Shown here: positions 18,013 to 64,000 of the stretch, in pieces | Layout: the number at the start of each line of letters is the position of its first letter | How positions within the stretch are numbered: position 1 is the first letter of the stretch | Notes under the pieces: generated by a model | The model's database searches: none | Told to the model about the DNA's origin: nothing | Seen by the model: only the letters and a program-made list of their open reading frames with translations | Position numbers and translations under genes: made by a program | Origin: an uncultured Kiritimatiellota bacterium | GTDB taxonomy: Bacteria > Verrucomicrobiota > Kiritimatiellia > RFP12 > DVOR01 | Assembly: GCA_944389545.1 (NCBI GenBank) | Contig: CALXMT010000001.1 | Coordinates: forward strand, 138,682 to 202,681 | Length of the DNA stretch: 64,000 nucleotides | Direction of reading: 5' to 3'

Positions 18013-19593
18013 TTAGGCAAGCGGCTCAGCGGCGGTGCCGGTGAGGCGGCGGGTTTGGCCGTCGAAGGAGAGGCCGATGAGGTGCACCTCTTTGCCGGAG
18101 TGGCGGTAAGGCTCGGCGTAACCCTTTTCCTTGATTTGGGCAAGGGCCTCTTGGGGCGTGCCGTCGACCTTGAGTTCGAAGACGAAGACGCGTTCGGGGG
18201 TCTCGGCAACGAGGTCTGCACGCCCCTGAGATTGGCGATCCTCGGCGGTGACGCGGAAGGAACCGTCGGAGGTCAGCAGGACGTAGAGGATGCGCTGGAA
18301 GGAGAACTCCTGCACGCGCGCTTCTTTGGAGCCGTAGGTGAGATGGGCGTAGAGATCGGAGAGGTTGCCGAAGAAGGTGGCGAAGTCGGCCTCTTCCAAC
18401 GCTTGGCAGGTAAGATTGCGGTAACGATCACTTGGAGTCTCGGCGAACTTTTGGACGAGCAGGGAGTTGAGCGCGCGGCGGACCTCCTCGTCCGGGATGC
18501 CGAGGGTGAAGCGTGACCGGCGGTATTTCTTAATGGTCAGATAGCCGCCTTGGTAAAGCATGGAGATGGGCTGAATGTTCTCCAGACCACAAACGTCCAA
18601 ATCTTCCTCTGAAACCCCCTCAATGTGCTCATAGTCCAGCTCGACGAGTTGGTTTTTCGTGAAGTAGTTGATGACAGCGGAGGTCTGGCCGGTGGAAATC
18701 CATGTGCCGGTGAAGCGACGCTTCAATGCGCCGAGGGTTTGCCCAATGGCAAAGGGATTGTAGACTTTCTCCTCGCAATCCGGAGAGAAACGGTAACCGT
18801 TGTACCACCAGCGAAGCTTTTCGCGGTAATCCTCGTAGGAAAGGCCCATAACTTCGGCATGGCGGTGCAACGTCTTGCTGAAGTTGGCGCCCAGCTCCTC
18901 ATCGGTGTAACCAAGGAGCGTGGCGTAGCGCTCATCCATCGTCAGGTCGGTGAGGTTGTTGAGCGCCGAGAAGACGGAGAGTTGCGTGAAGCGCGTCACA
19001 CCGGTCATCATCATGAAGCGGATGTTGCCGACGTTGTTTTTAATCTCGCCGTAAAAGGCGGAGAGTTTGGCGCGGATAGCCTTGGCCTTGGCGATGTCGT
19101 TCAGCGCATGGCCCACGGGTGCGTCATACTCGTCGATGAGAATGACCACGGGTTTGCCACGGTCTTTGGCGAGGGCCTTGATTGCACGTGAGAAGTTGTC
19201 GTTCGGGGCAAGGGTCGGATTATAAGTGGCCTTGGCATCCTCAATCACTTCTTGCACACGCGCCACAAAACCGGCCTGAAAGGTCTCAAGGGTCGTCACA
19301 TCCATCGTGCCGAAGTTGAAGTGGAGGATGGGGTAAGATTCCCAATCGTAGTCCATCTTGTCGATGGCCAGGCCCTTGAAGAGTTCGCGCTCACCGCGGA
19401 AGAGACACTCCAGTGTTGAGATCATCAGCGACTTGCCGAAGCGCCGTGGCCGGGAGATGAAGAAGAAGGAGTCCCTTCCGCGCGTGACGAGCGGATAGAG
19501 CAATGCCGTCTTGTCCACATAACGGAATCCATCCTCCCGCATAACGCGGAAGTCATAGGTCCCTTGCGCAATCTTCTCTTCGTCTTCTACCAT
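18013..19593 (-). CDS. AAA-ATPase-like / PD-(D/E)XK nuclease fusion protein (DUF1703-type), paralog 2
   Basis: Same architecture as paralog 1. Contains a stretch identical to paralog 1 (the alt-frame ORFs 16919-17131 and 18723-18935 encode identical 70-aa peptides, so at least 213 bp is identical). Start set at the ATG with 'aaggag' RBS (MVEDEEK). An upstream in-frame ATG (MSKEF) is overlapped by the -10 box. Confidence 0.75.
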   Translation of the reverse strand: MVEDEEKIAQGTYDFRVMREDGFRYVDKTALLYPLVTRGRDSFFFISRPRRFGKSLMISTLECLFRGERELFKGLAIDKMDYDWESYPILHFNFGTMDVTTLETFQAGFVARVQEVIEDAKATYNPTLAPNDNFSRAIKALAKDRGKPVVILIDEYDAPVGHALNDIAKAKAIRAKLSAFYGEIKNNVGNIRFMMMTGVTRFTQLSVFSALNNLTDLTMDERYATLLGYTDEELGANFSKTLHRHAEVMGLSYEDYREKLRWWYNGYRFSPDCEEKVYNPFAIGQTLGALKRRFTGTWISTGQTSAVINYFTKNQLVELDYEHIEGVSEEDLDVCGLENIQPISMLYQGGYLTIKKYRRSRFTLGIPDEEVRRALNSLLVQKFAETPSDRYRNLTCQALEEADFATFFGNLSDLYAHLTYGSKEARVQEFSFQRILYVLLTSDGSFRVTAEDRQSQGRADLVAETPERVFVFELKVDGTPQEALAQIKEKGYAEPYRHSGKEVHLIGLSFDGQTRRLTGTAAEPLA

Positions 19594-19612
19594 GCCGAAC
19601 TCCTTGCTCATA

Positions 19613-19621
19613 GTATAGCAT
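19613..19621 (-). promoter_or_regulatory. Extended -10 element 'TGcTATAcT' upstream of paralog 2
   Basis: '...cgccccttatgctatactATGAGCAAGGAGTTCGGCATGG'. Confidence 0.4.
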
Positions 19622-19807
19622 AAGGGGCGACATCGCCGCCTCGGCACTACCAGTACCAATACTGTCCGTGGAAGTTTACCGCGAAGACGGTCTTGCGTGG
19701 AAACCCTACGGGCTCCATCGTTCCCGTTGGTGCGCCGCCCTTGGGATTTCCACGCTATCGCACTTTTAATGGAAGTTTGGAAGCTTGGAGGCGCATTTCC
19801 ACGAAAA

Positions 19808-19850
19808 CACGAAGGAGCGCATTAGGCAAGCGGCTCACCGGCACCGTTGC
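19808..19850 (-). pseudogene. 3'-terminal remnant of a third DUF1703-type paralog (last ~12 codons '...GNGAGEPLA*' after an in-frame stop) with conserved 3' flank
   Basis: 19770-19826 matches the 3' UTR and last codons of paralogs 1 and 2 ('ttccacgaaaacacgaaggagcgcattaggcaagcgg'), then diverges. Confidence 0.45.
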
Positions 19851-20313
19851 CGAGCCACTTGCCTAAGGTTGCACGACTTTACAAAGACATGAAGGGAGCT
19901 CCATTCTCCGGGGCGCCCCTTGTCTTGCGTGCGCTAGCACGCCTTTAATCTGCTCCAAATCTGTGCAATCTGCGGTTCTCCATCCCACGTCGCTCTTCAG
20001 GAGATGTAGGAGAAGCCGGAGCGCCCTTGCGGGGCGACGGAGGAAGTGCTGTGCAAAAGCGGCGTAAGCCGCGAAAAGCCAAGCCTCCAAGCTCTCAAAC
20101 TTCCTCATCCCCTTTTGACGCAGGAAAGTGGGGCGCGGGAGGGCGCACGACCGTGCGTCCGGCGTTAGCGCCCCACCTTTCCTGTAAGCGTTGCGTCTTT
20201 GCGGTTTCCTTTTTCCCGGGACTCCTACAGTGGCGAAGCAATAAAAAAGCCCCGAGACCGGTGGGTCTCGGGGCGTGGTTTGAGGTGGATTGAGAGAAGG
20301 GGGTGGAAGTGCC

Positions 20314-30952: not shown

Positions 30953-30964
30953 AACCCACACATT

Positions 30965-31500
30965 CTACCACAACCCAGCCCCTCCCGTTAGGCGATACTG
31001 CCTGGGGCAATACTGTCCGGGGGAAAATGGGACCGCAAAGACGCAACTCTTGCAGGAAAGATGGGGCGCTAACGCCGGGCGCACATTCGTGCGCCCTCCC
31101 GCGCCCCACCTTCCTGCGCCAAAAGGACTTCTTAAGACGGCCCAAGCGCGAAGACGATGGGCGGGAGGGAGCAATCAGCGGGCGTTTAGCCCGCAAAACA
31201 ACCGGCGTTAGCCCATCTGGCTTCGCGCGTATTGGCGTCTTTGCGGGAAAATTTGGAGACCAGAGAACCGCAGATTTCTCACATTTTGGACAGATTAAGG
31301 GCGTGCTGGCGCACGCCAATTGATTGTACAGCCGCCCTGCAGGGGGCACTCTTGAATCTCCTGTGATGCCTTTGAGGTCTTCCAAGAAACGACAGAAACG
31401 CAAGGGATGGGGATAGGGAGTGAGGCGCAACGCGCCGAACGGCGAAGTGCCCAGGCCCTTGCGTTCCCTTCGTGTCTTCGTGGAGGACTCAACGGGCACG
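30965..31500. repeat. Composite intergenic repeat array (families I-variant, H, B) in the divergent region between the dppB-like gene and the nitrite/sulfite reductase gene
   Basis: 31050-31110 is the reverse complement of 20110-20190. 31290-31330 is family H ('cagattaagggcgtgctggcgcacgcc'). 31355-31480 is family B. Confidence 0.75.
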
Positions 31501-31560
31501 GCAAAGCGGGGCGGGCGCTTTTGGTATACTATGGGGTGAATTCTTTTTGAGGAGACCTCC

Positions 31561-33066: not shown

Positions 33067-33094
33067 GGCCCCAATGATGTTCGAGGAAACAGCG

Positions 33095-33300
33095 ATGGAC
33101 CGCAAAGACGCAAGGGGCAGCGCGAAACGCCTCGGGCTCCATCGGTCGCTTTGCGGCTCCGCCGCTGACCGCGACCGCCGCCCTCCGTTTCGCGCCTGGT
33201 CGTTTCCTCGGGAACTCCTCCCGTCGCCCCGTAGGGGCGCTCTGTTTTCCGTGGCCGTGGAAGGTTTGGCCCTCCGGGCCTGCACGCTCCGTTTTCCGTT
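33095..33300. repeat. Repeat family A (rc) plus F-like segment
   Basis: 33098-33200 matches family A. 33228-33300 resembles 'ccgtggaaggtttg.c..tc.cgcctgcacg'. Confidence 0.7.
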
Positions 33301-33385
33301 CTCCGGGGCGGTGCAAGCCGCCCCTTGTGCAGACATCGGCGAAATGTGTTATCCTTAAAGAAAAGGTAACGAAGGGAACCCTATC

Positions 33386-35879: not shown

Positions 35880-36190
35880 TAAATTCCAAGTTGGGCGTTT
35901 GGGAGAGGGGCGGCTTGAAGGTTTGCCCCCTGGTTTCACCCGTCGCCCCGCAGGGGCGTTCTGTTCTCCGTTCTCTGTTCTCCGTTCTCTGGGGGTGCGT
36001 CAGCACCCCTTGTTCTGCGTGCGCTAGTACGCCCTTAATCTGTTCCCAATCTGCGCAATCTGCTGTTCCCACCCGGGCAGTCTTTGCGGGTGCCGCGCAG
36101 CGTCCGGCCTCATCGCCGCCAAAGGCGGCGGCCCGGGCTCCAACCTCCGTGGCTCCTCCAAGCCTCCAAACTTCCAATCTTCCAAGATAA
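35880..36190. repeat. Composite repeats (families D, H, 'ccaagcctccaaacttcc')
   Basis: 35930-35990 contains the (gttctccgt)n microsatellite. 36015-36065 is family H. Confidence 0.7.
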
Positions 36191-43964: not shown

Positions 43965-44330
43965 CCGTTAGGTTTAGATCACAGAGGAGCACAGAGGGTT
44001 GCACAGAGCAACACAGAGATTCACACAACGCCAGAGAACCGCAGATTTTGGCAGATTTAGGGCGTGCTACCGTACGCAAGATTTCCAGGTTTGAGACTTG
44101 GCGGCTTGGCCTTCTCAATGGCCTCACCGTCGCCCCACAGGGGCGCTCCTGTATCTCCTGAATCTCCTGTATCTCCTGTTCAGCCTTTACACGCCTTCAG
44201 CGCCTTTTCAGCGATTCCAAAGTCCGGGCAAACACCCCCACCCGTCGCGCGCTTGCCGCGCGTTCCGTTCTCTGTTCTCCGTTCTCTGTTCTCCGGGGCA
44301 CGCAAGCGCCCCTTGTGTATTCGTGGAGAG
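43965..44330. repeat. Composite repeats (families H-rc, C with (aatctcctg)x3, D with (gttctccgt)n)
   Basis: 44120-44180 'cgtcgccccacaggggcgctcctgtatctcctgaatctcctgtatctcctg'. 44215-44325 is family D. Confidence 0.75.
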
Positions 44331-45774: not shown

Positions 45775-46110
45775 GTTTATCTACGCCCCCGCACAATACT
45801 GTCTGGGGAAGTTTTTCCGCGAAGACGGCCTTGCGTGGAAACCCGGCGGGCTCCATCGCTCCCTTCGGTCACGCCGCCCTTGGGATTTCCACGCTATCGC
45901 GCCCCTGAAGGGGCGCTCAATGGGGAGTTGGGAAGGTTAGAAGCTTGGAGGCTTAGAAGCTTGGTTTTGTTGGTGGGGCACTGCCTCACTTCTTTATTAT
46001 TCTCTTACCTGACAAGGCGCGAAACGGAGGGCGGCGGTCGCGGTCAGCGGCGAAGCCGCAGAGCGACCGATGGAGCCCGAAGCGGTTCGCGCCCCTCCTT
46101 GCGTCTTTGC
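45775..46110. repeat. Repeat family I (long form) followed by family A composite
   Basis: 45790-45930 is near-identical to 55660-55800. 45935-46110 is family A. Confidence 0.8.
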
Positions 46111-46192
46111 GGTCCCAATTTTCCCCGAGCACACCATTGGTCACTGAGGTAACCTGCCGCGAAAGCTGCCGCGATGTGCTATACTGTCGCGC

Positions 46193-46990
46193 ATGAAACA
46201 GACGAAAGTCATCGCAGTGGCCAACCAGAAAGGCGGGGTCGGCAAGACGACCACCGTGGTGAACCTGGCAGCGGCCTTGGCAAGAATGCGCAAAACCGTC
46301 CTGGTCATCGACCTCGACCCCCAGGCCAACGCCACCAGCGGCTTGGGTCTGCGCCCCACCCCCGGCACCAGCCTTTACGCGGCCCTCACCGGCCAAACCT
46401 TCATCGGCGACGTCATCCAGGGCACGCCCCTCGAAAACGTCAATATCATCCCTTCCGAACTCGACCTCTCCGGCGCGGAACTCGAAATCGCCCGGCAGGA
46501 CGACCACCTGCGCGTGGTGCGCGACCTGCTTGAGCCCGTCCTCACCGCGGGGGTCTACGACTTCATCCTCATCGACTGCCCCCCTTCGCTCGGCATCCTC
46601 ATGACCGCCTCGCTCGCCGCGGCCAACGGCGTCGTCGTCGCCATGCAGTGCGAATACTACGCAATGGAGGGCCTCCAGGTCATCACCGACGTCATCCGCC
46701 GCCTGCGCGAGAACGGCGCCAACCCCGCCATCCACGTCGAGGGTATCCTCATGACGATGTACGATGCCCGCACCAACCTCTCCGAGGATGTCGTCCAAGA
46801 GGTGCGCAAGCACTTCGGCAAACTCGTCTACAAGACCGTCATCCCGCGCAACATCCGCATCTCCGAGGCCCCCTCTTTCGGCCAGCCGGTCGTGGAATAC
46901 GATCCTTCCTCCAAGGGCGCCCAGGCCTACATCGCTCTGGCCAAGGAGTTCGCCGCCCGCGCCTCCCGCAATCAACAAACCCAAGATTGA
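46193..46990 (+). CDS. parA: ParA/Soj-family partition ATPase (no parB adjacent)
   Basis: Deviant Walker A '[12 protein letters not shown]'. Confidence 0.85.
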
Positions 46991-47006
46991 CACCACAGGA
47001 TTGAAG

Positions 47007-48209
47007 ATGAGCACCTATCTCAAAGACTATCCCGACGAAAACGGTTTCTTCGGCCCCTACGGCGGCATGTACGTTCCCGACCGCCTCAAGGACGAGATGA
47101 AGAAGATCGCCGAGGCCTATTACACCATCGGCCGCTCCTTCGACTTCGTTTCCGAGCTTCGTCGCATCCGCCGTCACTTCCAGGGCCGCCCAACCCCCGT
47201 CTACTACTGCCGCAACCTCAGCAAGCAGCTCGGCGGAAACATCTTCCTCAAGCGTGAAGACCTCAACCACTCCGGCGCCCACAAGATCAACCACTGCATG
47301 GGTGAGGTCATGCTCGCGAAGTACATGGGCAAGAAGCGTGTCATCGCCGAGACCGGCGCCGGTCAGCACGGCGTCGCCATGGCCACCGCCGCGGCCTACT
47401 TCGGCCTCCCCTGCGACATCTACATGGGTGCGGTCGACATCGCCAAGCAGCACCCCAACGTCGTGCGCATGAAGATCCTCGGCGCCAACGTCATCCCTGT
47501 CACCGCCGGCCAGCAGACCCTTAAAGAAGCCGTCGACGCCGCCTTCGAGGCCTATCTCAAAGACCCTGAGAACACCCTCTACTGCATCGGCACCGTCGTC
47601 GGCCCCCACCCCTTCCCCATGATGGTGCGCGACTTCCAAAAGGTCGTCGGCGAGGAGGCCCGCGAGCAGTACCTCGACATGATGGGCGAACTCCCCGATG
47701 CCGTCTGCGCCTGCGTCGGCGGCGGTTCCAACGCCATTGGCATCTTCTGCGGCTTCCTTGACGACCCCGTCAAACTCTACGGCGTCGAGCCCCTCGGCCA
47801 TGGCCCCAAGCCCGGCGACAACGCGGCCTCCCTCACCCTCGGCAAGCCCGGCATCCTCCACGGCTTCAAGAGCTACACCCTCGAGAACCCCGATGGCTCC
47901 GCCATGCCCGTCTACTCCGTCGCTTCCGGCCTCGACTACCAGTCCGTCGGCCCCGAGCACGCCTGGCTCAAGGACCAGGGCCGCGTGGAATACGTCACCG
48001 CCGATGACACCGAGGCGCTCAAGGCCTTCTTCGCGCTCTCCCGCTCCGAAGGCATCATCCCCGCCCTCGAATCCTCCCACGCCGTCGCCTACGCCATCCG
48101 TTACGCCAAGGAGCACCCCCACTCCTCCATCCTCGTCAACCTCTCCGGCCGCGGCGACAAGGACATCGACTACGTCGTCGAGCGCTATGGCCTCGGCGAG
48201 AACCTCTGA
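47007..48209 (+). CDS. trpB: Tryptophan synthase beta chain (long TrpB2-type)
   Basis: '[11 protein letters not shown]' PLP-lysine motif, 'GGGSNAIG'. Confidence 0.85.
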
Positions 48210-48227
48210 CCGCCCACGCGGCAAACA

Positions 48228-48262
48228 AAAAGGACCCGCCTTCGCAGGTGGGTCCTTTTTTT
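48228..48262 (+). terminator. Rho-independent terminator after trpB
   Basis: 'aaaaggacccgccttcgcaggtgggtcc' hairpin followed by 'ttttttt'. Confidence 0.7.
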
Positions 48263-48264
48263 AT

Positions 48265-48341
48265 TGGTCGGAGCGGGGGGATTTGAACCCCCGACCATCT
48301 GCTCCCAAAGCAGATGCGCTACCAGGCTGCGCTACACTCCG
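48265..48341 (-). tRNA. tRNA-Pro (anticodon TGG)
   Basis: Minus strand: CGGAGTG-TA-GCGC-AGCCTGGTA-GCGC-A-TCTGC-TTTGGGA-GCAGA-TGGTC-GGGGG-TTCAAAT-CCCCC-CGCTCCG-A-CCA. Cloverleaf with one G-U pair in the acceptor stem; encoded CCA. Confidence 0.9.
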
Positions 48342-48344
48342 TGA

Positions 48345-49050
48345 GAAATCGCCGCATAGTGTACCACATTTCCTGCCACCGCGTCTCTCACCGCCCGCGG
48401 GATTTTCCGCAAAGACGATCTTGCGTGGTAACTCGGCTGGCTATCGCACCCCTTGCCCACGCTACCCTTGGGATTTCCACGCTAGCGTGCCCCTGATGGG
48501 GCGCTCTGTTCTCCGTTCTCTGGGGTGGCAAGGCCACCCCTCCCCCCAACGCATGGCGTGCGAAGCCCGCCATGCTCCCTCAGGCCCCCGGGCCGGACGT
48601 GCGCCTTGCGCGCACGCACGGCCCGCCTCCGCGTCGTGCCGTCCCCTTTGTGATCCTTTGTGGTCCTTCGTGTTCTTTGTGATAGCCGCGCAGCGTGAGG
48701 CCTGTCCAAACTTCCAAGCCTCCAAGCTTCCAAACTTCCCCTTCTGCGTCCTGCGTGCGGTAGCACTTCGCCCGACTCTGTGACCCTCTGTCTTCTCCGT
48801 GATCCTCTGTGTTCTCCAAAATCTGCGGTTCCCCTGCGTCGTGCTTTGTGTATCTTTGTGGTTCTTCGTGTTCTTTGTGATAGCCGCGCAGCGTTGAGTC
48901 TGTCCAAGTTTGGAGGCTTGTCCATTTTCTCTACGCCCCACCCGTCGCGCGCTTGCCGCGCGTTCTGTTCTCCGTTTTCCGTTCTCCGTTCTCCGGGGCG
49001 CGCCAGCGCCCCTCCCGTTCTCCGTTCTCCGGGGCGGCAGTGTCTGCCGC
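48345..49050. repeat. Composite repeat array (families I, D, E, G x2, H-variant)
   Basis: 48380-48490 I. 48540-48640 E. 48640-48740 and 48830-48920 G. 48950-49040 D. Confidence 0.8.
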
Positions 49051-49068
49051 CCTATAACATCTTTACGT

Positions 49069-49097
49069 TTGCCGATTGGCGCGGCAAGTGCTATACT
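49069..49097 (+). promoter_or_regulatory. Candidate sigma70-type promoter for fba (-35 'ttgccg', 17-bp spacer, -10 'tatact')
   Basis: Read from sequence. 'caggag' RBS precedes ATG 49135. Confidence 0.4.
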
Positions 49098-49134
49098 AAG
49101 CACCATCAATCAACCTGAACCAGGAGTCAGAACG

Positions 49135-50091
49135 ATGATCGTTACGACGAAGGAACTCTTCAAGCACGCTTATGGCAAGTACGCCGTCGGTGCTTACAAC
49201 ATCAACAACATGGAGCAGTGCATGGGACTGTTCCGCGGGTGCATTGAGAGCAAGGCCCCGTTCATCATCCAGATTTCCAAGGGTGCGCGCAGCTACACCG
49301 ACAAGCTGATGCTTGAGAACGTCATCCGCGCCGCCGACAAGATCTTCCCCGAGGCCGTCTTCGCGGTGCACCTGGACCACGGCGATGAGGCTTCCTGCAT
49401 CGACTGCATCAACTCCGGCTTCTACAGCTCCGTGATGATCGATGCCTCCTCCAAGCCCTTCGACGAGAACGTCGCCATCACCAAGAAGATCGTGGACATG
49501 GCTCACGCCAAGGGTCTCGTCGTCGAGGCCGAGCTCGGCAAGCTGGGCGGCGTCGAAGAGCACGTCGCGGTCGATGAGAAGGACGCTTGCCTCACCAACC
49601 CCGATGACGTCAAGCGCTTCGTCGAGGCCACCGGCTGCGACTCTCTCGCCTGCGCCATCGGCACCTCTCACGGCGCCTTCAAGTTCACCGGCACCCAAGG
49701 CCTCCGCTTCGACGTCCTCGCCGACATCCAGAAGAAGGTCCCCGGCTTCCCGCTGGTCATGCACGGCTCTTCCTCCGTCCCGCAGGACGAGGTCGCCCGC
49801 ATCAACGCCGCCGGCGGCAAGCTCGACGGCGCCAAGGGCGTCGATGACAACCAGTTCCGCCGCGCCGCCGAGCTGGGCGTCACCAAGATCAACATCGACA
49901 CCGATGGCCGCCTGGTGTGGTGCCGCGTCCACCGCGAGTACTTCCGCGACCACCCCGAAAACTTCGACCTCCGCCCGATCGGCAAGATCTTCATGGAGGA
50001 GTACGCCAAGTTCATCGCCGCCAAGAACGTCAAGCTCGGCTCCGCCGGCCAGCTGGACGACGTGCGCGCGTTCTGCAAGGCGAATGCCTAA
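49135..50091 (+). CDS. fba: Fructose-bisphosphate aldolase, class II
   Basis: 'AVHLDHGDE' and 'AIGTSHGAFKF' zinc-ligand motifs. Confidence 0.85.
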   Translation: MIVTTKELFKHAYGKYAVGAYNINNMEQCMGLFRGCIESKAPFIIQISKGARSYTDKLMLENVIRAADKIFPEAVFAVHLDHGDEASCIDCINSGFYSSVMIDASSKPFDENVAITKKIVDMAHAKGLVVEAELGKLGGVEEHVAVDEKDACLTNPDDVKRFVEATGCDSLACAIGTSHGAFKFTGTQGLRFDVLADIQKKVPGFPLVMHGSSSVPQDEVARINAAGGKLDGAKGVDDNQFRRAAELGVTKINIDTDGRLVWCRVHREYFRDHPENFDLRPIGKIFMEEYAKFIAAKNVKLGSAGQLDDVRAFCKANA

Positions 50092-50157
50092 GACCCTCGG
50101 GGGCGCCTGGAGAGACGGGCGCCCCCGAACCGTTTTCACACCAAGGAGAGAATCCCA

Positions 50158-53721
<3,564 letters not shown>

Positions 53722-53744
53722 GACGTCCCGGCGCGACAAGCCCA

Positions 53745-53775
53745 AAAAGCCCCGGCCCCGCCGGGGCTTTTTTAT
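53745..53775 (+). terminator. Rho-independent terminator after nifJ
   Basis: 'aaaagccccggccccgccggggctttttt'. Confidence 0.7.
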
Positions 53776-53779
53776 ACCC

Positions 53780-54640
53780 TGCGGCATCGCAGCAATCCTG
53801 TCCGGGGAAATCCTGCAGGTCTTTTCCCCGCGAAGACGCGAGTGCGCGCGAAGTCAGATGGGCTAACGCCGATCACGCTGCGGGCTAAACGCCCGCTGAT
53901 CGCTCCCTCCCGCCCATCGGCTTCGCGCCTTGCCGTCTCCACCCGTCGCCCCACAGGGGCGCTCCTGAATCTCCTGAATCTCCTGAATCTCCTGAATCTC
54001 CTGACGAGCGACGCTGTAGGACCACTGGACGGTGAAGCCGCTCACGCACAGCGGCTTCACCGTCGCGCGCTTGCCGCGCGCTCTCTGTTCTCCGTTTTCC
54101 GTTCTCTGTTCTCCGGGGCGCGTCAGCGCCCCTTCCCCCAAAGCATGGCGTGCGAAGCCCGCCATGCCCCCCAGGTCCCCGGGCCGGACGTGCGCCTTGC
54201 GCGCACGCACGGCCCGCCCTCTGCGCCGTGCTATCCCCTTTGTGCCCCTTAGCCGTGGAAGGTTTGTCGCTTCGCGCCTGCACGGTGGTCCTTCGTGTTC
54301 TTTGTGATAAAACCCGGCAGACCTTCTCTGTGAGCCTCTGTGTAACCCTCTGTGTGCCTCTGTGCTCTAAAATCCAGCGTGCGGTAGCACGCCCTTAATC
54401 TGCTCAAAATCTGTGAGATACCGAAGGTCTTCCTAGCGAAGCGACGAAACATCTGCGGTTCCCCTGCGTCGTGCTAGCCTTGTCATACGCTGTGATTTCC
54501 CGAGAAACGACAGAGACGCAAGGGATGGGCACGGTAGTGAGGCCCCCAGGGCCGAACGGTGAAGTGCCCAGGCCCTTGCGTTCCTTTTGTGTCTTCGTGG
54601 AGAAACGAAGCGCCCCCCGAATATGCTAGAATACGCCACA
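53780..54640. repeat. Composite repeat array (families I-variant, C with (aatctcctg)x5, D, E, F, H, B-rc)
   Basis: 53958-54003 'ctcctgaatctcctgaatctcctgaatctcctgaatctcctg'. 54130-54230 E. 54235-54310 F. 54360-54480 H. 54495-54605 B. Confidence 0.8.
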
Positions 54641-54649
54641 AAGGAGTTC

Positions 54650-55651
54650 ATGATGGCTTTGCAGATTCCGCAGATTGTAGACTTGGCGAGCGCCTTTTAT
54701 GGCTCAGCGGTCCTCTTCGCCGCCCTGGAGTTGGATGCCTTCACGGCCATCCAAGAGACGGCAGACCCGACCATCGAAGCATTGTCAGCGAAACTGGGTG
54801 TGGACACCCGCGGCCTACGTCTGCTCCTGGATGGTGCCGTTGCGGTCGGCCTCTTGGAAAAGCACGAGGGCCGCTACGCCCTGACACCCGCCACGGCCGC
54901 AACCCTGGTGCGCGGTGCCCCGCACGATCTGACCAAGGCCATCGCCTACAACCGGGACGTCTATCCCGCATGGGGCCGCTTGACGCAACTGGTCCGCACG
55001 GGCCATCCTGTCGAGGCGCCTGCCCTGCACCTGGGGTCGGATGCCGAGCGCACGCGTCGCTTCGCGCTGGCCATGCACGGACGCGCCTTGGGCATCGGCC
55101 GCGCCATCGTCCCCCAACTGCACCTCCCCAAGGGCGCACGCGTCCTTGACCTGGCCGGCGGCCCCGGCACCTACGCCCTGCTCATGGCGCAGCAAGACCC
55201 CACCCTCACCTGCGACACCGTGGACCTCCCCGCCATCGCCGAGGTCGCCAAGGAAATCACCGCCCCCTGCGCCGACCGGGTCCACTGCCACGCCGGCGAC
55301 TACCATCGTGACACCTGGGCCCCCGCCGCCTACGATGCCGTCACCCTCTTCGGCTGCCTCCACCAGGAGTCCCCGGAAAGCATCGTCGACATCCTGCGCC
55401 GCGCCACGGACGCCCTCCGCCCCGGCGGCACGCTCTACGTCCTCGACCTCATGACAGGCCCCGACCACACCACGCCCCCCTTCTCCGCCCTCTTCGCCCT
55501 CAACATGGCCCTCACCACCGAGAACGGCTGGGTCTTCTCCGACGAGGAACTGCGCGGCTGGATGACCCAAGCCGGCCTCACCGACTTCTCCTGCGCCCCC
55601 GTCCCGCCCCCCATGCCCCACTGCCTCGCCCGCGCCGTGAAACCCATGTGA
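54650..55651 (+). CDS. Class I SAM-dependent O-methyltransferase (Methyltransf_2 / plant-OMT-like with N-terminal dimerisation helix)
   Basis: 'VLDLAGGPGTYALLMA' SAM motif. RBS 'aaggag' before ATG 54650. Confidence 0.65.
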   Translation: MMALQIPQIVDLASAFYGSAVLFAALELDAFTAIQETADPTIEALSAKLGVDTRGLRLLLDGAVAVGLLEKHEGRYALTPATAATLVRGAPHDLTKAIAYNRDVYPAWGRLTQLVRTGHPVEAPALHLGSDAERTRRFALAMHGRALGIGRAIVPQLHLPKGARVLDLAGGPGTYALLMAQQDPTLTCDTVDLPAIAEVAKEITAPCADRVHCHAGDYHRDTWAPAAYDAVTLFGCLHQESPESIVDILRRATDALRPGGTLYVLDLMTGPDHTTPPFSALFALNMALTTENGWVFSDEELRGWMTQAGLTDFSCAPVPPPMPHCLARAVKPM

Positions 55652-55654
55652 AGG

Positions 55655-56690
55655 GTAGTCTCCTGGGAAGTTTTTCCGCGAAGACGCTTTGGCGTGGAAA
55701 CCCTGCGGGCTCCGCCGCTCCCTTTGGTCACGCCGCCCTTGGGATTTCCACGCTATCGCGCCCCTGAAGGGGCGCTCAATGGGGAGTTGGGAAGTTTAGA
55801 GGCTTGGAGGTTTGGCCTTCTCAATGGCCTCACCGTCGCGCGTTTGACGCGCGCTCTCTGTTCTCTGTTTTCTGTTCTCCGTTCTCTGGGGTGGCAAGGC
55901 CACCCCTTCCCCCAAAGCATGGCGTGCGAAGCCCGCCATGCCCCCTCAGGCCCCCGGGCCGGACGTGCGCCTTGCGCACACGCACGGCCCGCCCCCTGCG
56001 CCGTGCCGTCCCCTTTGTGCCCCTTAGCCGTGGAAGGTTTGTCGCTTCGCGCCTGCACGGTGGTCCTTCGTGTTCTTTGTGATAGCCACGCAGCATGAAG
56101 CCTGTCCAAACTTCCAAGCCTTCAAACTTCTAAACTTCCAATTGCGCGTCCTGCGTGCGCTAGCACGCCCTTAATCTGCTCAAATCTGTGAGATACCGAA
56201 GGTCTTCCTAGCGAAGCGACGGAACATCTGCGGTTCCCTGCGTCGTTTGCCTTTTGTGGTTTTCCCAAACCCAAAGCATGGCGTGCGAAGCCCGCCATGC
56301 CCCTTCAGGCCCCCGGGCCGGACGTGCACCTTGCGCGCACGCACGGCCCGCCCCAGCGTCGCCTTCCTTCGTGTCCTTTGTGTCCTTTGTGATTTAAAAA
56401 CAAACTGGCAGTCCATCCCTGTGTTCCTCTGTGTAACCCTCTGTGTGCCTCTGTGCTCTAAACTGCGTCGTGCTTTGTGTTTCTTTGTGGTCCTTTGTGT
56501 CCTTCGTGTTTCTCGAAAAACACTCCACCTCTGTCCAGCGGCTCCATCCGTCGCGCGCTTGCCGCGCGCTCCGTTCTCCGTTCTCTGTTCTCCGTTCTCA
56601 GGGCGGCAAAGCCGCCCCATTTGACGTAGCGGTCTGAAGTTCGGTATAATTGACGGCGTGACGGCAAGGACTAGTCCGAGCCCTATTTTT
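55655..56690. repeat. Composite repeat array (I long form, D, E x2, F, G, H, D)
   Basis: 55660-55800 I. 55835-55890 D. 55905-56005 E. 56015-56090 F. 56150-56250 H. 56270-56360 E. 56455-56520 G. 56545-56615 D. Confidence 0.8.
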
Positions 56691-56699
56691 GGAGCATCC

Positions 56700-57533
56700 A
56701 TGAAAAGCATCGTGAATCAGCTTTGCCAGCTCCAGGACCTCATCCTGGTGCGCGATGAACATCGGGCCACGGGCGACGGCGCCCATCTTGCCCGTCTCAA
56801 CGAATCCATCGATTCCATGATTGAGGCGTTGCCCTCAAACGTCAAATCCTTCTTCCAGCGCCTCTACAATCGCGACCACGTGATGATGGCGCCCGTGCAC
56901 AACGGCTGTTGCGCCGTCTGCGGCATGCGCTTGCCCATCAGCCAAATCCAGGCCGTACGCCAGTGCAAGACCCTGCAGATGTGCCCCGGGTGCGCGCGCA
57001 TCCTCTTCGAAGAACTCGACGCCCCGCAGTGGGTCGGCGCCTCCCCCACCCGTGCCGAGCCCCGCAAGAGCGGCATCTCGCGCTTCTCCGCCGAGACCCT
57101 CATGGTGCCGGACCTGGTCGCGGGCTCCGCGGCCGACGCCATCGAGGTCCTCGCCGGCAAGATGGAGTCCGGCGGCTTCATCTCCCACGCCGATAAACTC
57201 ATCACCTCGGCGCTCGAGCGCGAATCCATCCTCAGCACCGCCATGGAACACGGCCTGGCCTTCCCGCACGTCCGCGGCGTGGAGGGCGGCTCGCTCACCA
57301 TGTCCTGCGGCGTCAGCAAGGAACCCTTCAAGTGGGACGCCGCCGGCACCCCGGTCAACATCGTTTTCCTCATCACCATCCCGGCCGCCGTCAGCGCCTT
57401 CTACATGCGCCTTATCGCCGGTCTCACCGAAGCCTTCCTCAAGGAGCCCAATCGCGAGGCTCTCCTCGCCGCCGAGACCCCGAACGCCCTCTGGAAGGCC
57501 CTCACCAAGGCCACCCGCTACACCATCAAGTGA
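56700..57533 (+). CDS. Fusion of C4 zinc-ribbon module and PTS EIIA(Ntr)-type domain
   Basis: 'CCAVCGMRLPISQIQAVRQCKTLQMCPGCARILF' (Cx2C...Cx2C) followed by an EIIA-2 fold with 'LAFPHVRGVEG' phospho-His region. Confidence 0.6.
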   Translation: MKSIVNQLCQLQDLILVRDEHRATGDGAHLARLNESIDSMIEALPSNVKSFFQRLYNRDHVMMAPVHNGCCAVCGMRLPISQIQAVRQCKTLQMCPGCARILFEELDAPQWVGASPTRAEPRKSGISRFSAETLMVPDLVAGSAADAIEVLAGKMESGGFISHADKLITSALERESILSTAMEHGLAFPHVRGVEGGSLTMSCGVSKEPFKWDAAGTPVNIVFLITIPAAVSAFYMRLIAGLTEAFLKEPNREALLAAETPNALWKALTKATRYTIK

Positions 57534-57536
57534 CCC

Positions 57537-58202
57537 ATGCCCACCCTGACCACCTCGCTCAACCGTGAGTACGCGGCCCGCTTCCTTGGCGTGGCCGCGC
57601 TCTTGCTGGCCTTCGCCGGCTGGTTCCTCTACGATGGCCTGATCGGCTACCCTGCCGAGAACGACCGCGTGGCCCCCGTCGCGGAACGCCTGGCCGCCGA
57701 AGAACGCACCGCCGCCGAGTGGATGAACACCCAGCAGACCGGTGTCGCCCCCCTCGTCGAGGCCTTCCAACAGGCCGGCGTGAAGCCCCCCGCAAAAATC
57801 ACCGACACCTTCAACTCGTGGATCTCCATCAACGACCCCGAGAAGGACAGCGTCGAAGCCGCGCAGCGGGTGCTCCGCACCCCACCCCACAGCGCGGACA
57901 GCATCACCACCCAGTTCATCAGCGCCGCCATCTCCGCCCTCGCCGGCCTGGCGCTGATTTTCCTCGTCCTCCTGCGCTGGAAGACCCGCATCACCTTGGA
58001 TGACGACACCCTCACCGTCACCACCTTTGGTTACACCGCCCGCCACGCCCTCGCCGACCTCAAGTCCGTTGATGATGCACAGTGGGAAAAGCGTGGCATT
58101 CTCCGCCTTACCTTCCCCTCCGGCACCGTCACCCTCGATGCCTGGCACCACACCGGCGTCCGCCCCCTCGCCGAACGCCTCCTCCCCAAGAAGCCCAATT
58201 AG
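57537..58202 (+). CDS. Hypothetical membrane protein (two TM helices)
   Basis: The ORF starts 4 bp after the upstream stop. Hydrophobic segments 'FLGVAALLLAFAGWFL' and 'ISALAGLALIFLVLL'. Confidence 0.4.
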   Translation: MPTLTTSLNREYAARFLGVAALLLAFAGWFLYDGLIGYPAENDRVAPVAERLAAEERTAAEWMNTQQTGVAPLVEAFQQAGVKPPAKITDTFNSWISINDPEKDSVEAAQRVLRTPPHSADSITTQFISAAISALAGLALIFLVLLRWKTRITLDDDTLTVTTFGYTARHALADLKSVDDAQWEKRGILRLTFPSGTVTLDAWHHTGVRPLAERLLPKKPN

Positions 58203-58204
58203 GC

Positions 58205-58900
58205 CTAACGAGCGGGTTCCACAAAGACACCAAGGAACGCAAGGGCCTGGGCACTTCACCGTTCGGCCCTTCGGGCCTCTCTACCGTGCCCATCCCTTGC
58301 GTTTCTGCGATTTCTTGAAAAGCACCCTCTGACAACGCTATAGGGCCACTAGGCTCTATAGGACGGGCTAACGCCGCTCACGCACAGTGCCTTCGCCCAT
58401 CGCGCGCTTGCCGCGCGCTCCTGTATCTCCTGAATCTCCTGCATCTCCTGAAACGCCCCCCGGGGCGCGCCAGCGCCCCTTCCCCCCAAGCATGGCGTGC
58501 GAAGCCCGCCATGCCCCCTCAGGCCCCCGGGCCGGACGTGCGCCTTGCGCGCACGCACGGCCCGCCCCAGCGTCGTGCTATCCCCTTTGTGCCCCTTAGC
58601 CGTGGAAGGTTTGTCGCTTCGCGCCTGCACGGTGGTCCTTCGTGGCCTTTGTGATAAAACCCGGCAGACCTTCTCTGTGAACCTCTGTGGATTCCTCTGT
58701 GAGCCTCTGTGATCTAAACTGCGTCGTGCTTTGTGTATCTTTGTGGTCCTTCGTGGCCTTTGTGATAGCCGCGCAACGTTGAGTCTGTCCAAGTTTGGAG
58801 GCTTGTCCATTTTCTCTACGCCCCACCCGTCGCCCCGCAGGGGCGTTCCGTTCTCCGTTCTCTGTTCTCCGTTCTCCGGGGCGCGCTAGCGCCCCATCAG
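58205..58900. repeat. Composite repeat array (B, C with (aatctcctg)x3, E, F, G, D)
   Basis: 58215-58320 B. 58395-58460 C. 58480-58580 E. 58585-58665 F. 58720-58800 G. 58840-58900 D. Confidence 0.8.
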
Positions 58901-60096
58901 AGTCGATGGCCGCGGAGGGCATTGAAGCGGGCGGTGACGGGCAGAGGCCCGACGAGCGGGCGGGCATAGTCCAGGAAGAGCCCGGTCACATTGTTGCCCT
59001 CAGCGTTGATATAGCTGTCCGGGAGGGCGCGGGTGTTGCGCGCCACGGCGGAGAGCGGCGCAATGGCATAATCGACCTGATAGGTGACACCGGGCAGACG
59101 CGTGAGCGTGACGGTGCCATTGGTGTACTTGCCGCCGACCGCCGCGGTGACGGCGTACGACCCGGCCAGACGCGCCTCGTTGGCGTCGGTCTCCGAGACA
59201 CACCCCACGAAACACCGCTGAATGAAGCCGAAGGTATCGGCCCGCACGCGGGAGACGCTGAGACGCTGCCGAATGACGGCGGCCAACTGCTCGCCGAGCG
59301 CACCGGAGGTGAGCTGACGGTTGCCATGGGCGTCGACCTCCGTGGAAAAGGCCTCCGCGATGGGACGCCCATCCTCGCCGCAGATACCCTCGGAGACCGC
59401 GACCACGCATCGCCCATAACGCGTCATGCACTCGGAGACGTCAGCGACAAAGCGGTCGATGGTGAAGGGGCGCTCCGGGAAATAGAGCAGGTGCGGACCG
59501 TCATCGGGGTCCTGACGGGCAAGCGCCGCGGCAGCGGTGAGGAAGCCCGCGTTGCGCCCCATGATGACGTCAATCTTCACGCCGCCAAGAGCCCGGTTGT
59601 CCAGGTCATCGCCGCGCACGGCGCAGGCGACGAAGCGCGCCGCGGAGCCGTAGCCCGGGGTGTGGTCGTTGCAGAGCAAATCGTTGTCGATGGTCTTGGG
59701 GATGTGGAAACACCGCAGGTCATAACCCTGGCGCCCGGCCTCCTCCGCGATGATGTTGGCGGTCTCGGCGGAGTCGTTGCCGCCGATATAGAAGAAGTAG
59801 CGCACGTTGCGCCGCGCGAGCACCTCAAAGATGGCCTTGCAGTCGTCCGGCGTCGGCTTGCGGCGCACAGACCCCAGCGCGGAGCTGGGCGTCTGCGCCA
59901 CGCGCAACAGCACCTCCTCGGGCTCCGCGCGCAGGTCGATGAAGGCCTCGTCCAAAATCCCCTGAATGCCATGGAGGGCCCCATAAATCTCGACAATCTT
60001 CGTGGAAGCCTTGGCGGCCAGCACGGCGCCGACCAAGCTCTGATTGATGACCATCGAAGGACCGCCGCTCTGGGCGATAAGCATGTTGCCGGTCAT
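58897..60096 (-). CDS. pfp: Pyrophosphate-dependent 6-phosphofructokinase (PfkA-family, PPi-PFK type)
   Basis: 'GGPSMVINQSLVG' and 'IPKTIDNDL' PFK motifs with Asp in the Gly/Asp position typical of PPi enzymes ('YIGGNDS'). RBS 'ggagg' before ATG. The 5' part of the longer track ORF is antisense to repeats and was discarded. Confidence 0.75.
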   Translation of the reverse strand: MTGNMLIAQSGGPSMVINQSLVGAVLAAKASTKIVEIYGALHGIQGILDEAFIDLRAEPEEVLLRVAQTPSSALGSVRRKPTPDDCKAIFEVLARRNVRYFFYIGGNDSAETANIIAEEAGRQGYDLRCFHIPKTIDNDLLCNDHTPGYGSAARFVACAVRGDDLDNRALGGVKIDVIMGRNAGFLTAAAALARQDPDDGPHLLYFPERPFTIDRFVADVSECMTRYGRCVVAVSEGICGEDGRPIAEAFSTEVDAHGNRQLTSGALGEQLAAVIRQRLSVSRVRADTFGFIQRCFVGCVSETDANEARLAGSYAVTAAVGGKYTNGTVTLTRLPGVTYQVDYAIAPLSAVARNTRALPDSYINAEGNNVTGLFLDYARPLVGPLPVTARFNALRGHRL

Positions 60097-62839: not shown

Positions 62840-63130
62840 GCCCACCCGCTTCACGCAAGTACCTTGTGGGGCGGCTGTGCCGCCCCGGAGAACAGAGAAC
62901 GGAGAACGGAGAACAGAACGCGCGGCAAGCGCGCGACCGGCGAAGCCGCCGTCCTGAATCTCCTGCATCTCCTGAATCTCCTGCGCGGCCTTTCCAGGAA
63001 AACGAGAGAAACGCAAGGGATGGGCACGGTAGTGAGGCCCGCAGGGCCGAACGGTGAAGTGCCCAGGCCCTTGCGTTCCTTTTGCGTCTTCGTGGAAAAA
63101 TGCACGTCCGTTCTCCGGGGTGGCAAGGCC
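62840..63130. repeat. Composite repeats (D-rc, C with (aatctcctg)x3, B-rc)
   Basis: 62870-62945, 62950-62990, 62995-63100. Confidence 0.8.
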
Positions 63131-63135
63131 GCCCC

Positions 63136-64000
63136 TCAATGGACAGCGAGCAGGTCACGGTACTTCGGGAGCGGCCAACGCGCGTCATCCACACGCGTCT
63201 CCAGCCCATCGACCACCGTGCGCAGGTCCGCCATCGCGGATTGGATAGCCCGCGAGTCCGTCCCCGCAAGCGTGGTCTCCAGCGTGGCGCAACGCTCATG
63301 GAGCGCCTCCAGACCGGCCCCGAGCGCCTCAGCCGTCTCGCGCATGCACCGCGAACCCGCGGTCAGGCCCACGCGCTCCATCGTGCTCAACGCCTGCGCC
63401 AAGCCCGCGACCTCATGCGCCACCACGGGCACAATCATCCCGCGCGCGATTTCCAGCGCCACCTTGCCTTCCAGGCGCACCTTCCGCTCGAAGTCCGCCA
63501 CAAAGACGTCATGCCGCGAGTGCATCTCCGTCGGCATCAACACGCCCTGCGACTCAAAGAGCGCCAGGTTCTGCTCCGCAATCTGCGGCTCCAGCGCCTC
63601 CGGCACCGTCCGCAGATTCGGCAACCCGCGCCGTGCGGCCTCGCGCACCCACTCCTCCGAGTAACCGTCGCCGTTGAAGATCACCCGCTTGTGGTCCTTC
63701 AGGACCGCCCGCAGGACCTTCCCCAGCCCCTCATGGAAACGCCGCTTCGGCACCTTTCCGATAGCCTCCGCCAACACCTCCATGCTCTCGGCCACGATGG
63801 TGTTCAGCACCATGCACACGCCCGAGCAGTTCTGGCTCGCGCCCGGTGCACGGAACTCAAACTTGTTCCCCGTGAAGGCGAAAGGCGACGTCCGGTTCCG
63901 GTCCGTCGCGTCCCGCGGCAAGGGCGGCAACGTGTCCACCCCGATGCGCAGCTTCCGCGCCTTCCCGTCACCCGCCGTCGAGACCGTCCCCTCCTCGATG
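63136..64000 (-). CDS. glnN: Glutamine synthetase, probably type III (C-terminal portion; gene continues beyond window end)
   Basis: 'DRNRTSPFAFTGNKFEFRAPG' parallels the GS 'NRSASIRIP...EVRFPD' active-site region. The reading frame is open to position 64000. Confidence 0.55.
   Translation of the reverse strand, partial: IEEGTVSTAGDGKARKLRIGVDTLPPLPRDATDRNRTSPFAFTGNKFEFRAPGASQNCSGVCMVLNTIVAESMEVLAEAIGKVPKRRFHEGLGKVLRAVLKDHKRVIFNGDGYSEEWVREAARRGLPNLRTVPEALEPQIAEQNLALFESQGVLMPTEMHSRHDVFVADFERKVRLEGKVALEIARGMIVPVVAHEVAGLAQALSTMERVGLTAGSRCMRETAEALGAGLEALHERCATLETTLAGTDSRAIQSAMADLRTVVDGLETRVDDARWPLPKYRDLLAVH

Follow-up and report, generated by a model that had tools for sequence, protein, structure and literature searches.

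The window analysed here is a stretch of 64,000 nt from an uncultured gut-type Kiritimatiellota bacterium (contig CALXMT010000001.1; G+C content of the window ca. 65%), and its subject is a non-coding array of repeats located between a tRNA-Pro gene and the gene fba, in a neighborhood of ordinary housekeeping genes (Table 1). An original prediction, made from the sequence alone, had flagged the interval 48345–49050 as one of several intergenic arrays of dispersed repeats. The array is there, although its proper limits are 48400–49052; positions 48345–48399 are single-copy DNA, as is the stretch from 49053 to the start of fba. It is made of GC-rich hairpins, blocks of 7–9-nt tandem repeats and a two-hairpin module, E, whose predicted palindromic nature agrees with the two strong hairpins that it forms (−30.3 kcal/mol, z = −4.9). 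Over the whole window, about four fifths of the larger intergenic gaps is a patchwork of more than 20 small hairpin-forming and tandem repeat families. Comparison with related contigs indicates that this patchwork is reshuffled, gained and lost between strains with nearly identical genes, and that one gene was deleted along the way.

The 15 intergenic gaps longer than 100 nt add up to 7,773 nt, and 78% of their bases have a match elsewhere in the window, against ca. 1% of the 53,005 coding bases, as expected from the claim that repeats fill practically every gap of this size. The figure rises to 83% once 13 loci of a related metagenome-assembled genome (MAG) are added. The matches found by self-BLAST were 50–200 nt long, with 75–100% identity and E-values from 1e-10 to 1e-60, i.e., far beyond chance. 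Self-comparison displayed 14 repeat-filled intergenic stretches, four of them the arrays that had been placed at 48.3–49.1, 53.8–54.6, 55.7–56.7 and 58.2–58.9 kb (recovered at 48403–49025, 53823–54605, 55665–56619 and 58217–58898) and the other 10 smaller, together with a tandem gene duplication (16183–19866). Hairpins with perfect stems of at least 6 bp were called 70 times (ca. 45 distinct) in the 7.8 kb of gaps versus 88 times in the other 56 kb. Extragenic, high-copy imperfect palindromes of 20–40 nt, a trait of repetitive extragenic palindromes (REPs) and of the bacterial interspersed mosaic elements (BIMEs) built from them, are therefore present.

The nine families (A–I) originally proposed are an undercount, since more than 20 module types could be separated. 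A recurrent one is a two-hairpin unit of ca. 80 nt in which hairpin A is followed by three to five copies of GTTCTCC (T1) or of CTCCTGAAT (T2) and then by hairpin B. Hairpin A appears as CCGTC-GCCCC-RCA-GGGGC-G or as CCGTC-GCGCGC-TTGC-CGCGCG, and hairpin B as GGGGCGC-loop-GCGCCCC, GGGGTGGC-loop-GCCACCCC or GGGGCGGC-loop-GCCGCCCC. In all the sequence examined, a perfect hairpin lies 5′ of the (GTTCTCC)n in 32 of 33 distinct blocks and 3′ of it in 29 of 33, and the stems beside these blocks vary by paired changes. Such compensatory changes suggest that what is recognised may be the small hairpin itself, in the form of single-stranded DNA while it spreads or in that of RNA. There are further tandem blocks of an 8-mer (CCAAGCTT) and of 9–10-mers (TCCTTTGTG, CCTCTGTG and AATCTGCGG), long-hairpin modules of ca. 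105–160 nt (M1, with a fold z of −4.6, M2, M3, D19 and the ‘20111’ type) and two types of mini-element, el1 and el2, of 34 nt each. A family of GACCCTTATAGGGTC palindromes stands apart from the other module types.

The families are not confined to this locus. When an exact 23-mer from the core of E was searched in one genome per species (185,579 species), it gave 14 occurrences, all in a single MAG (uncultured Kiritimatiellaeota BRZ_KQ bin80, CALXOF01), where they fall in 13 stretches of six contigs, with both strands represented. E itself is lineage-specific. BLAST of the window showed that all other families also match those 13 loci, one of which, L006, is syntenic with the window at 94–97% identity (numbers with L denote the related contigs or loci fetched for comparison). 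Since the families recur on both strands in several contigs of this related MAG, a local segmental duplication was rejected, and the dispersal that had been predicted holds. To look at strains, public contigs encoding an identical FBA or PstB protein were collected, giving 8 and 10 orthologous loci, respectively; the NIR_SIR protein as a query retrieved near-identical strains only. An identical FBA protein is indexed in 208 blocks of public contigs. Flanking genes are 98–100% identical within the lineage of the window and 88–100% identical to those of a second lineage (L018, L020 and L021).

The history of the flagged array can be read from these contigs. In L014, L017 and L019 tRNA-Pro and fba are separated by a gene with a RibD_C domain that has an array on either side, and the two arrays each contain an E module, both copies being in direct orientation. 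The gene is also present in L018, where there is almost no array, and in the window, L016 and L015 the gene is absent and there is a single fused array. Diagnostic bases in these last three are of the ‘array 1’ type upstream of E and of the ‘array 2’ type downstream. The type switches just 5′ of E in the window and in L016, and within hairpin 2 of E in L015, which indicates that there were two distinct crossovers, or else a single one with subsequent conversion. The flagged array is thus a recombinant, in which a crossover between E copies deleted the RibD_C gene that other strains have kept. As the gene was lost between direct E copies, with junctions at E, we take this as direct evidence that the repeats mediate deletion; the effect on recombination that had been anticipated is supported by it.

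Presence/absence polymorphism of the kind that a comparison with related genomes had been expected to expose was found in several other gaps. Between OMT and the EIIA-like gene, the window shares a gap of ca. 1,060 nt with L014, L016 and L017; this gap is 894 nt long in L015, and L018, L020 and L021 have 87 nt there. The array of ca. 970 nt that fills the long gap overlaps the stop codon of OMT and supplies a new one (at 55640–55660 the empty allele reads ..CCC ATT TGA and the filled one ..CCC ATG TGA, changing the last residue from Ile to Met), and it stops exactly at the −35 box of a TTGACG-18-TATAAT promoter (56621–56650). L152, L153 and L156 lack the array at 33081–33329: their gap measures 68 nt, against 320 nt, with a junction repeat of 5 nt (GCCCC). 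Five unrelated array haplotypes were found among 11 contigs in the divergent gap at 30962–31560. Between PFOR and OMT, strains differ by one or two CTCCTGAAT units, by the presence of el1 and of el2, by a CCTCTGTG cassette swapped for a CCAAGCTT cassette between identical flanks and by a T1 module that in some strains takes the place of the terminal M1. The array upstream of a ParA-like gene (45794–46140) occurs in inverted form in L018, L015 has a single M1 in its place, and the CTCCTGAAT-type tandem of the array at 19913–20240 has two units in the window versus nine in L151.

Errors of assembly could in principle mimic such events, if short-read assemblers jumped between near-identical modules and so created false deletions, swaps and chimeras; all of the sequence comes from contigs of metagenomes or MAGs, the modules (50–130 nt) are near read or k-mer length and the RibD_C ‘deletion’ sits exactly between two repeats. 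However, independent assemblies, made from different samples and in different studies, contain the same haplotypes down to the base (window = L016; L018 = L020 = L021 over three gaps; L152 = L156), and this recurrence argues against such an explanation. The two deletion junctions each recur or lie in otherwise consistent contigs, and filled and empty sites of 34 nt, precise to a single base, are impossible to obtain by repeat collapse. We find an artefact of this kind scarcely credible.

Along positions 46200–60000 the nucleotide identity to L018 and L020 changes stepwise at the arrays, from ca. 94.5% in ParA–trpB to ca. 99% in fba–PFOR, ca. 88–95% in OMT, 85–97% in EIIA and the next gene, and 95–100% (L018) or 92–99% (L020) in PFK. 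These steps could be recombination boundaries at the arrays, or merely reflect stronger constraint on fba and PFOR.

They bear on what we regard as the main rival explanation, i.e., a recombinase-driven system like that of the intergenic mosaic elements of Neisseria (NIMEs), in which the arrays would be kept for raising local recombination. The architecture is as published for NIMEs, with families of 50–150 bp, short inverted repeats between them and arrays that are syntenic yet strain-variable (PMC1797815). The cassette swaps bounded by shared modules, the lineage identity steps (ca. 94.5% to 99% to ca. 90% across arrays) and the covarying hairpin stems would fit as well. However, the NIME repeat dRS3 (ATTCCCN8GGGAAT) had no match at up to one mismatch, at least eight hairpin types are present instead of a single punctuating repeat, and no recombinase was identified in the sequence examined. 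The identity steps are equally explained by stronger constraint on fba and PFOR (G+C at third codon positions, GC3, of 0.91–0.94), and the two crossover points inside or beside E resemble ordinary homologous recombination. We consider this explanation unlikely.

The sequence of the mini-element el1 is R-GCCGTGGAAGGTTTG followed by a 5-bp stem with a 3-nt loop and CTGCACG. Its surroundings are of at least five kinds, as it is embedded in GTTCTCC, TCCTTTGTG, GCTGATTG and AATCTGCGG tandems and is also found directly next to E. Its footprint is the same at three orthologous pairs of filled and empty sites, where one T is replaced by the 34-mer (cccctt-T-gtggtcc versus cccctt-[A+33 nt]-gtggtcc; ccgt-T-ctccg versus ccgt-[G+33 nt]-ctccg), and at a fourth site its 33-nt core is doubled in L017. 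In the inner stem both sides have changed at three of five pairs (GGCGC/GCGCC, GGCCC/GGGCC, GGTGC/GCACC, GCGGC/GCCGC), a covariation score reached by none of 500 shuffles in a small sample of 13 distinct sequences. Folding of el2 gave no predicted structure.

One way to account for these features would be a mobilisation like that of REPs by their associated tyrosine transposases (RAYTs), with hairpin A, the T1 and T2 units and el1 cut and pasted as single-stranded DNA by an HUH tyrosine transposase of the IS200/IS605 type. It would explain both the conservation of the hairpins and the missing target duplications; no duplication accompanies the insertion of el1, which is at a T next to S, the stems covary and the small hairpin modules are strand-biased. 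Yet neighboring hairpins here are mostly in one orientation, whereas REPs alternate in BIMEs, no RAYT was seen in the ca. 250 kb of this species that were read, and we know of no HUH footprint consisting of the replacement of one base, which counts against this account. Hairpin A does carry the CGTC tag of one REP superfamily (PMC3733652), but the stems are of 5–8 bp, all G/C (6 bp in hairpin A), with loops of 3–5 nt, while the published CGTC REPs have 8–9-bp stems starting with A/T pairs, 4–5-nt loops and a CCA tail, and are reported to lack a transposase of their own (PMC3733652). On balance such a mobilisation is possible but doubtful. A more speculative idea, which we hold to be improbable, is that el1, el2 and the hairpin-(7–9-mer)n-hairpin units are products of an undescribed type of mobilisation, in which hairpin cassettes would be written into T-rich tandems by single-base replacement, the same end hairpins carrying interchangeable payloads (GTTCTCC or CTCCTGAAT). 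If this were true and a dedicated hairpin-recognising enzyme were involved, the arrays would be an engineered recombination substrate with a NIME-like function and an independent origin in the Planctomycetes-Verrucomicrobia-Chlamydiae (PVC) group. For individual el1 and el2 events, gene conversion from existing filled copies remains an alternative.

A different kind of module resembles MITEs (miniature transposable elements with inverted repeats). The long modules share a terminus or ‘head’, CAATACTGTCCGGGGAA, with a CAATACTGTCCGGGG form at array edges; its layout is CAAT-ACTGTCCGGGG-AAAAT(GG)-ACCGCAAAGACGCAAGG, and element halves start with CAAT-ACTGTCCGGGG-AAAAT...CCGCAAAGACGCAAGG. The head is always at the outer edge of an array, toward unique DNA (ca. 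14 edges), and often there are inverted heads at both edges; inverted CAATACTGTCCGGGGAA heads bound L018:6489–6887, L010:7334–7735 and the window array at 45794–46140. The first of these is flanked by a 9/9 target duplication (TCGCTGAAG) and the second by an 8/9 one ((C/T)ATATATTC), and an 8/9 nine-base repeat, CCCAT(G/T)TGA, lies at the edges of the window array 55652–56619. The L010 element consists of both halves of the window copy at 31008–31260 plus 145 nt of nested CCAAGCTT and hairpin modules. These head-bearing elements are of 250–400 nt and have many copies, their open reading frames (ORFs) have no GC3 coding signal, and they are modular, with one common terminus and at least five bodies, serving as landing pads for other repeats.

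The original comparison with MITEs is therefore probably right for a subset, with a shared terminal inverted repeat and, in some copies, 9-bp duplications, but not for most modules: terminal inverted repeats are confined to the head-bearing ones, and the hairpin-(7–9-mer)n-hairpin units, the E module and the 34-nt mini-elements have neither these nor target duplications of their own, and appear to have been nested into, or recombined between, existing repeats. The likeness to Correia elements failed, the arrays not being plain concatenations of independent MITE or Correia copies, and the Correia terminal inverted repeat had no match at up to three mismatches. No inverted heads 1.6–6 kb apart that enclose a transposase-like gene were found in the sequence examined. 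Among metagenome contigs the 16-mer TGTCCGGGGAAAATGG of the head retrieved 120 stretches, none with the rest of the head, which were chance matches and an unrelated conserved gene. The only notable pair of inverted heads at this spacing brackets an AAA-ATPase_like/PDDEXK_9 gene in L151, which was considered as the transposase and rejected on the evidence at hand, its flanks being inconsistent over nine copies and its own promoter conserved.

The ORFs in the arrays have GC3 values of 0.55–0.75 versus 0.84–0.94 in real genes and were rejected as protein-coding on this basis, so the suspicion that they merely mirror the repetition of the DNA was justified. Canonical terminators (48227–48260, 53744–53772) lie ahead of arrays, and promoters are intact directly after them. 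A function as RNA or regulatory DNA, i.e., transcribed 3′ or 5′ untranslated elements acting as terminators, insulators, RNA stabilisers or protein sponges, would be in keeping with several observations. Hairpin A plus the T-rich heptamers is terminator-like, at 23 sites versus 12.9 expected, the hairpins are kept by compensatory change, the reverse strand of every tandem block is GGA-rich, and several modules are co-oriented with the flanking tandem genes (T1 7:0, hairpin A variants 5:0 and 5:0, E 8:1 and el1 6:0, counts that are not independent). However, close strains can do without whole arrays, one and the same gap is filled by entirely different arrays, arrays are also present between divergent promoters, where nothing needs terminating, the T2 and T3 blocks have no orientation bias (5:5 and 3:5), canonical terminators already precede the arrays and Rfam 15 gave no match inside them even at E ≤ 1 (tRNA-Pro alone exceeded the gathering threshold). 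We deem this function distinctly improbable. CsrA-type sponges, suggested by the GGA-rich strand, were set aside (both orientations, dispensable between strains, no Rfam match), and a CRISPR-like or integron-like nature was rejected, since there are neither regular repeat-spacer units nor cassette ORFs.

GC skew tracks gene orientation throughout the window, coding strands being C-rich (skew of ca. −0.2 to −0.35 for plus-strand genes and of +0.1 to +0.34 for minus-strand genes), and the T- and C-rich strand of most arrays agrees with it.

Our preferred explanation, which we consider probable, is that these are non-coding mosaic arrays, selfish or neutral, that accumulate between the terminator of one gene and the promoter of the next with a much faster turnover than that of the surrounding genes. 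They would be seeded by elements of ca. 250–400 nt, made of two inverted halves of ca. 120–140 nt, that transpose into intergenic DNA with a 9-bp duplication, in part visible in the target repeats described above, through a transposase presumed to act in trans. Accretion follows as modules insert into existing repeats, of which the strains retain examples in el1 and el2, inside 7–9-nt tandems with one base replaced each, and in the tandem-repeat and hairpin blocks inside a MITE copy. Slippage changes the number of 7–9-nt units (from 2 to 9 in the case above). Homologous or ectopic recombination between dispersed copies produces the observed swaps, inversions, losses or gains of whole arrays and deletions between copies, and the flagged array is the product of one such deletion. 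Finally, selection would presumably exclude arrays from coding sequence and from the cores of promoters and terminators.

Several points weigh against this explanation. All the sequences are short-read metagenome assemblies. Three of the five head-bounded elements have no target duplication, something to be expected if recombination exchanges flanks, but that still weakens the case. The right end is a T1-module hairpin and not a head in two whole-array gain/loss events, and the junction repeat is of only 5 nt in one of them (33081–33329), so that microhomology-mediated insertion or deletion fits the two events equally well. In the ca. 250 kb of the species that were read we found neither a transposase nor a RAYT gene. 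The single-base replacement at the el1 and el2 junctions fits no transposition chemistry known to us. The co-orientation of T1, E and el1 could be a sign of function rather than neutrality.

The coordinates of all these features are collected in Table 1.

Table 1. Features of the window and of related contigs (prefix L); positions without a prefix refer to the window.
Feature	Position	Strand	Remarks
Flagged mosaic array	48400–49052	+	non-coding; between tRNA-Pro and intact fba promoter
D19-like module with degenerate head	48400–48486		flagged array, module 1
Hairpin	48487–48504		flagged array
Short GTTCTCC block	48505–48521		flagged array
Hairpin	48522–48540		flagged array
Recombination junction	48541–48551	+	fusion of two ancestral arrays with loss of RibD_C in this lineage; upstream of ‘array 1’ type, E and all downstream of ‘array 2’ type
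E module	hairpin 1 48552–48574; hairpin 2 48589–48625		flagged array
First TCCTTTGTG block	48643–48684		flagged array
CCAAGCTT block	48706–48739		flagged array
GCGTGCGGTAGCAC hairpin remnant	48753–48766		flagged array
CCTCTGTG-like block	48776–48817		flagged array
AATCTGCGG remnant	48818–48832		flagged array
Second TCCTTTGTG block	48843–48882		flagged array
Reverse CCAAGCTT remnant	48904–48920		flagged array
Complete T1 module	hairpin A 48943–48962; (GTTCTCC)n 48963–48994; hairpin B 48995–49012		flagged array
Short block	49013–49030		flagged array
Terminal hairpin	49031–49052		flagged array
fba promoter-like site, TTGCCG-17-TATACT with TG	49069–49097	+	single-copy; begins 17 nt past array end
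RibD_C gene	L014:8328–9008; L017 and L019:8319–8999; L018:9153–9833		226 aa, dihydrofolate-reductase-like
trpB	46764–48209
tRNA-Pro(TGG)	48265–48341	−	left neighbor of flagged array; passes Rfam gathering threshold
fba, class II fructose-bisphosphate aldolase	49135–50091
PFOR, pyruvate:ferredoxin oxidoreductase	50158–53721
OMT, O-methyltransferase	54587–55651
PTS-EIIA-like gene	56658–57533
Mosaic array	53790–54612	+	from PFOR terminator (53744–53772) to OMT; head-bearing module at left edge, inverted M1 at right edge
Mosaic array, ca. 970 nt	55652–56619	+	absent from L018, L020, L021; flanks CCCATGTGA / CCCATTTGA (8/9 identical)
Mosaic array	58217–58898	+	between a 221-aa gene and convergent PFK; gap 765 nt vs 355 nt in the other lineage
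Compact ‘MITE A’ copy	31008–31260	+	two inverted head-bearing halves
Rest of divergent-gap array	31261–31485	+
Smaller arrays as found by self-BLAST/repeat search	33071–33329; 31015–31485
Array	33081–33329	+	head-bearing M2 and T1 module containing el1
Array	45794–46140	+	bounded by inverted heads
Array	43972–44317	+	reverse CCTCTGTG and AATCTG blocks, T2 module, T1 module
Array	1000–1356	+	M1 (1000–1105), reverse CCAAGCTT block, inverted M2 with head at right edge
Array	10591–10858	+	M2 between inverted CCAAGCTT tandem blocks
Array	19913–20240	+	head at right edge; self-comparison match 19913–20222
Array	35937–36186	+	T1 module, AATCTG block, CCAAGCTT block
Array	62867–63137	−	flanking genes on minus strand; T1 module, T2 block, M1
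Tandem GACCCTTATAGGGTC palindromes	15971–16106	.	fold z = −6.3; not mixed with other modules
el1, 34-nt hairpin mini-element	54251–54284	+	orthologous site empty in L006, L018, L020, L021
Other el1 copies	33253–33286; 56026–56059; 58598–58631
el2, 34 nt	54417–54450	+	replaces single A in AATCTG tandem; site empty in L017, L019
Second el2 copy	56192–56225

Two other variable regions were observed. The duplicated genes mentioned above are tandem paralogues with AAA-ATPase_like (PF09820) and PDDEXK_9 (PF08011) domains (16209–17783 and 18013–19659, minus strand, 86% amino acid identity), in a region of G+C 0.56–0.59 that adjoins a Type ISP restriction-modification gene (11046–15941) and looks like a variable defence island. 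Between 0 and 4 copies are present, depending on the strain (L147, L150, L151, L149 and L152 compared), each copy having its own conserved promoter and leader (..TATGCTATACT..AGGAGTTCGG-ATG), and a 1040-aa protein takes their place in L149, L152 and L153. Distant copies (60–63% amino acid identity) lie beside arrays on the MAG contigs L009 and L013, and the GACCCTTATAGGGTC tandem is found downstream of one copy in the window and upstream of another in L013 (L013:171–286). In L149 (positions 1–2800; MAG GCA_949285125.1) nine small ORFs in a row (52–224 aa), which look like a fragment of a prophage or island, stand in place of the NIR_SIR gene, a neighbor of the 31-kb array in the window, and the synteny break coincides with the array.

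What emerges is an architecture comparable to that of NIMEs and locally denser, in an uncultured Kiritimatiellota species represented by assemblies from several European Nucleotide Archive (ENA) submissions and two NCBI MAGs. Its strain-resolved contigs record gain and loss of arrays, cassette replacement, inversion, nested 34-nt insertions and a repeat-mediated gene deletion, and make up a natural population data set for the origin and spread of such arrays. There is also a practical side, as gene callers predict ‘proteins’ of 100–230 aa over the arrays, at which the assembly and binning of this lineage are also expected to break or mis-join.

Work on intergenic mosaic repeat arrays has concentrated on Neisseria and enterobacteria, and the architecture described here is closest to the NIMEs of Neisseria and the BIMEs of Escherichia coli. 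Among MITEs, Correia elements (also called Correia repeat enclosed elements, CREE) duplicate TA. The head-bearing elements are likewise short, non-coding, intergenic and multi-copy, with terminal inverted repeats and, in some copies, target duplications, but here the duplication is of 9 bp and the Correia terminus is absent. The pneumococcal BOX element has the structure boxA-(boxB)n-boxC, with conserved ends and a variable number of short tandem units. The units found here are similarly modular, with conserved ends around a variable tandem count; however, the ends are two independent small hairpins, the unit is of 7–9 nt versus 45 nt, and several unit sequences are used per set of end hairpins. 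The small dispersed repeats (SDRs) of cyanobacteria, reportedly 21–27 nt long in the 2008 account of Elhai and co-workers, and the short tandemly repeated repetitive sequences (STRRs) of the same group offer a parallel in elements of tens of nucleotides precisely inserted in other repeats and in dispersed intergenic tandem heptamers. Unlike them, el1 and el2 are 34 nt long, have unrelated sequences and replace one base, in a host that is a heterotrophic anaerobe of the PVC group. A cyanobacterial example is SDR5, which inserts between fixed bases of HIP1 (PMC4390886); the review PMC3184786 is silent on SDRs.

The REP, BIME and REPIN-RAYT systems of Proteobacteria share with these arrays short GC-rich extragenic palindromes in mosaics, compensated variation of the stems and, in one hairpin family, a 5′ CGTC tag (PMC3733652). 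The stem and loop geometry departs from that of groups CGTC-1 to CGTC-4 (PMC3733652), within arrays the orientation of hairpin A, hairpin B and E is constant instead of alternating, and the load is far higher, ca. 80% of the bases in the larger intergenic gaps. With NIMEs they have in common long intergenic arrays of many 50–150-bp families punctuated by short inverted repeats, in broadly syntenic positions with strain-variable content and length, and a tie to recombination (PMC1797815). In contrast to NIMEs, there is neither dRS3 nor any single punctuation element, 7–9-nt tandem blocks and nested 34-nt mini-elements are present, and the arrays belong to a genome of ca. 65% G+C from an unrelated phylum, Kiritimatiellota, where they are flanked by housekeeping metabolic genes and not by surface-antigen genes. 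According to the 2007 paper on strain FAM18, no NIME arrays had been observed outside Neisseria (PMC1797815), and full-text literature searches returned no description of such repeats in Kiritimatiellota. The arrays belong to the known class of intergenic mosaic repeat arrays, with population dynamics that are unusually well documented, and their unusual parts are the hairpin-bounded tandem units with interchangeable payloads and the 34-nt mini-elements that replace a single base.

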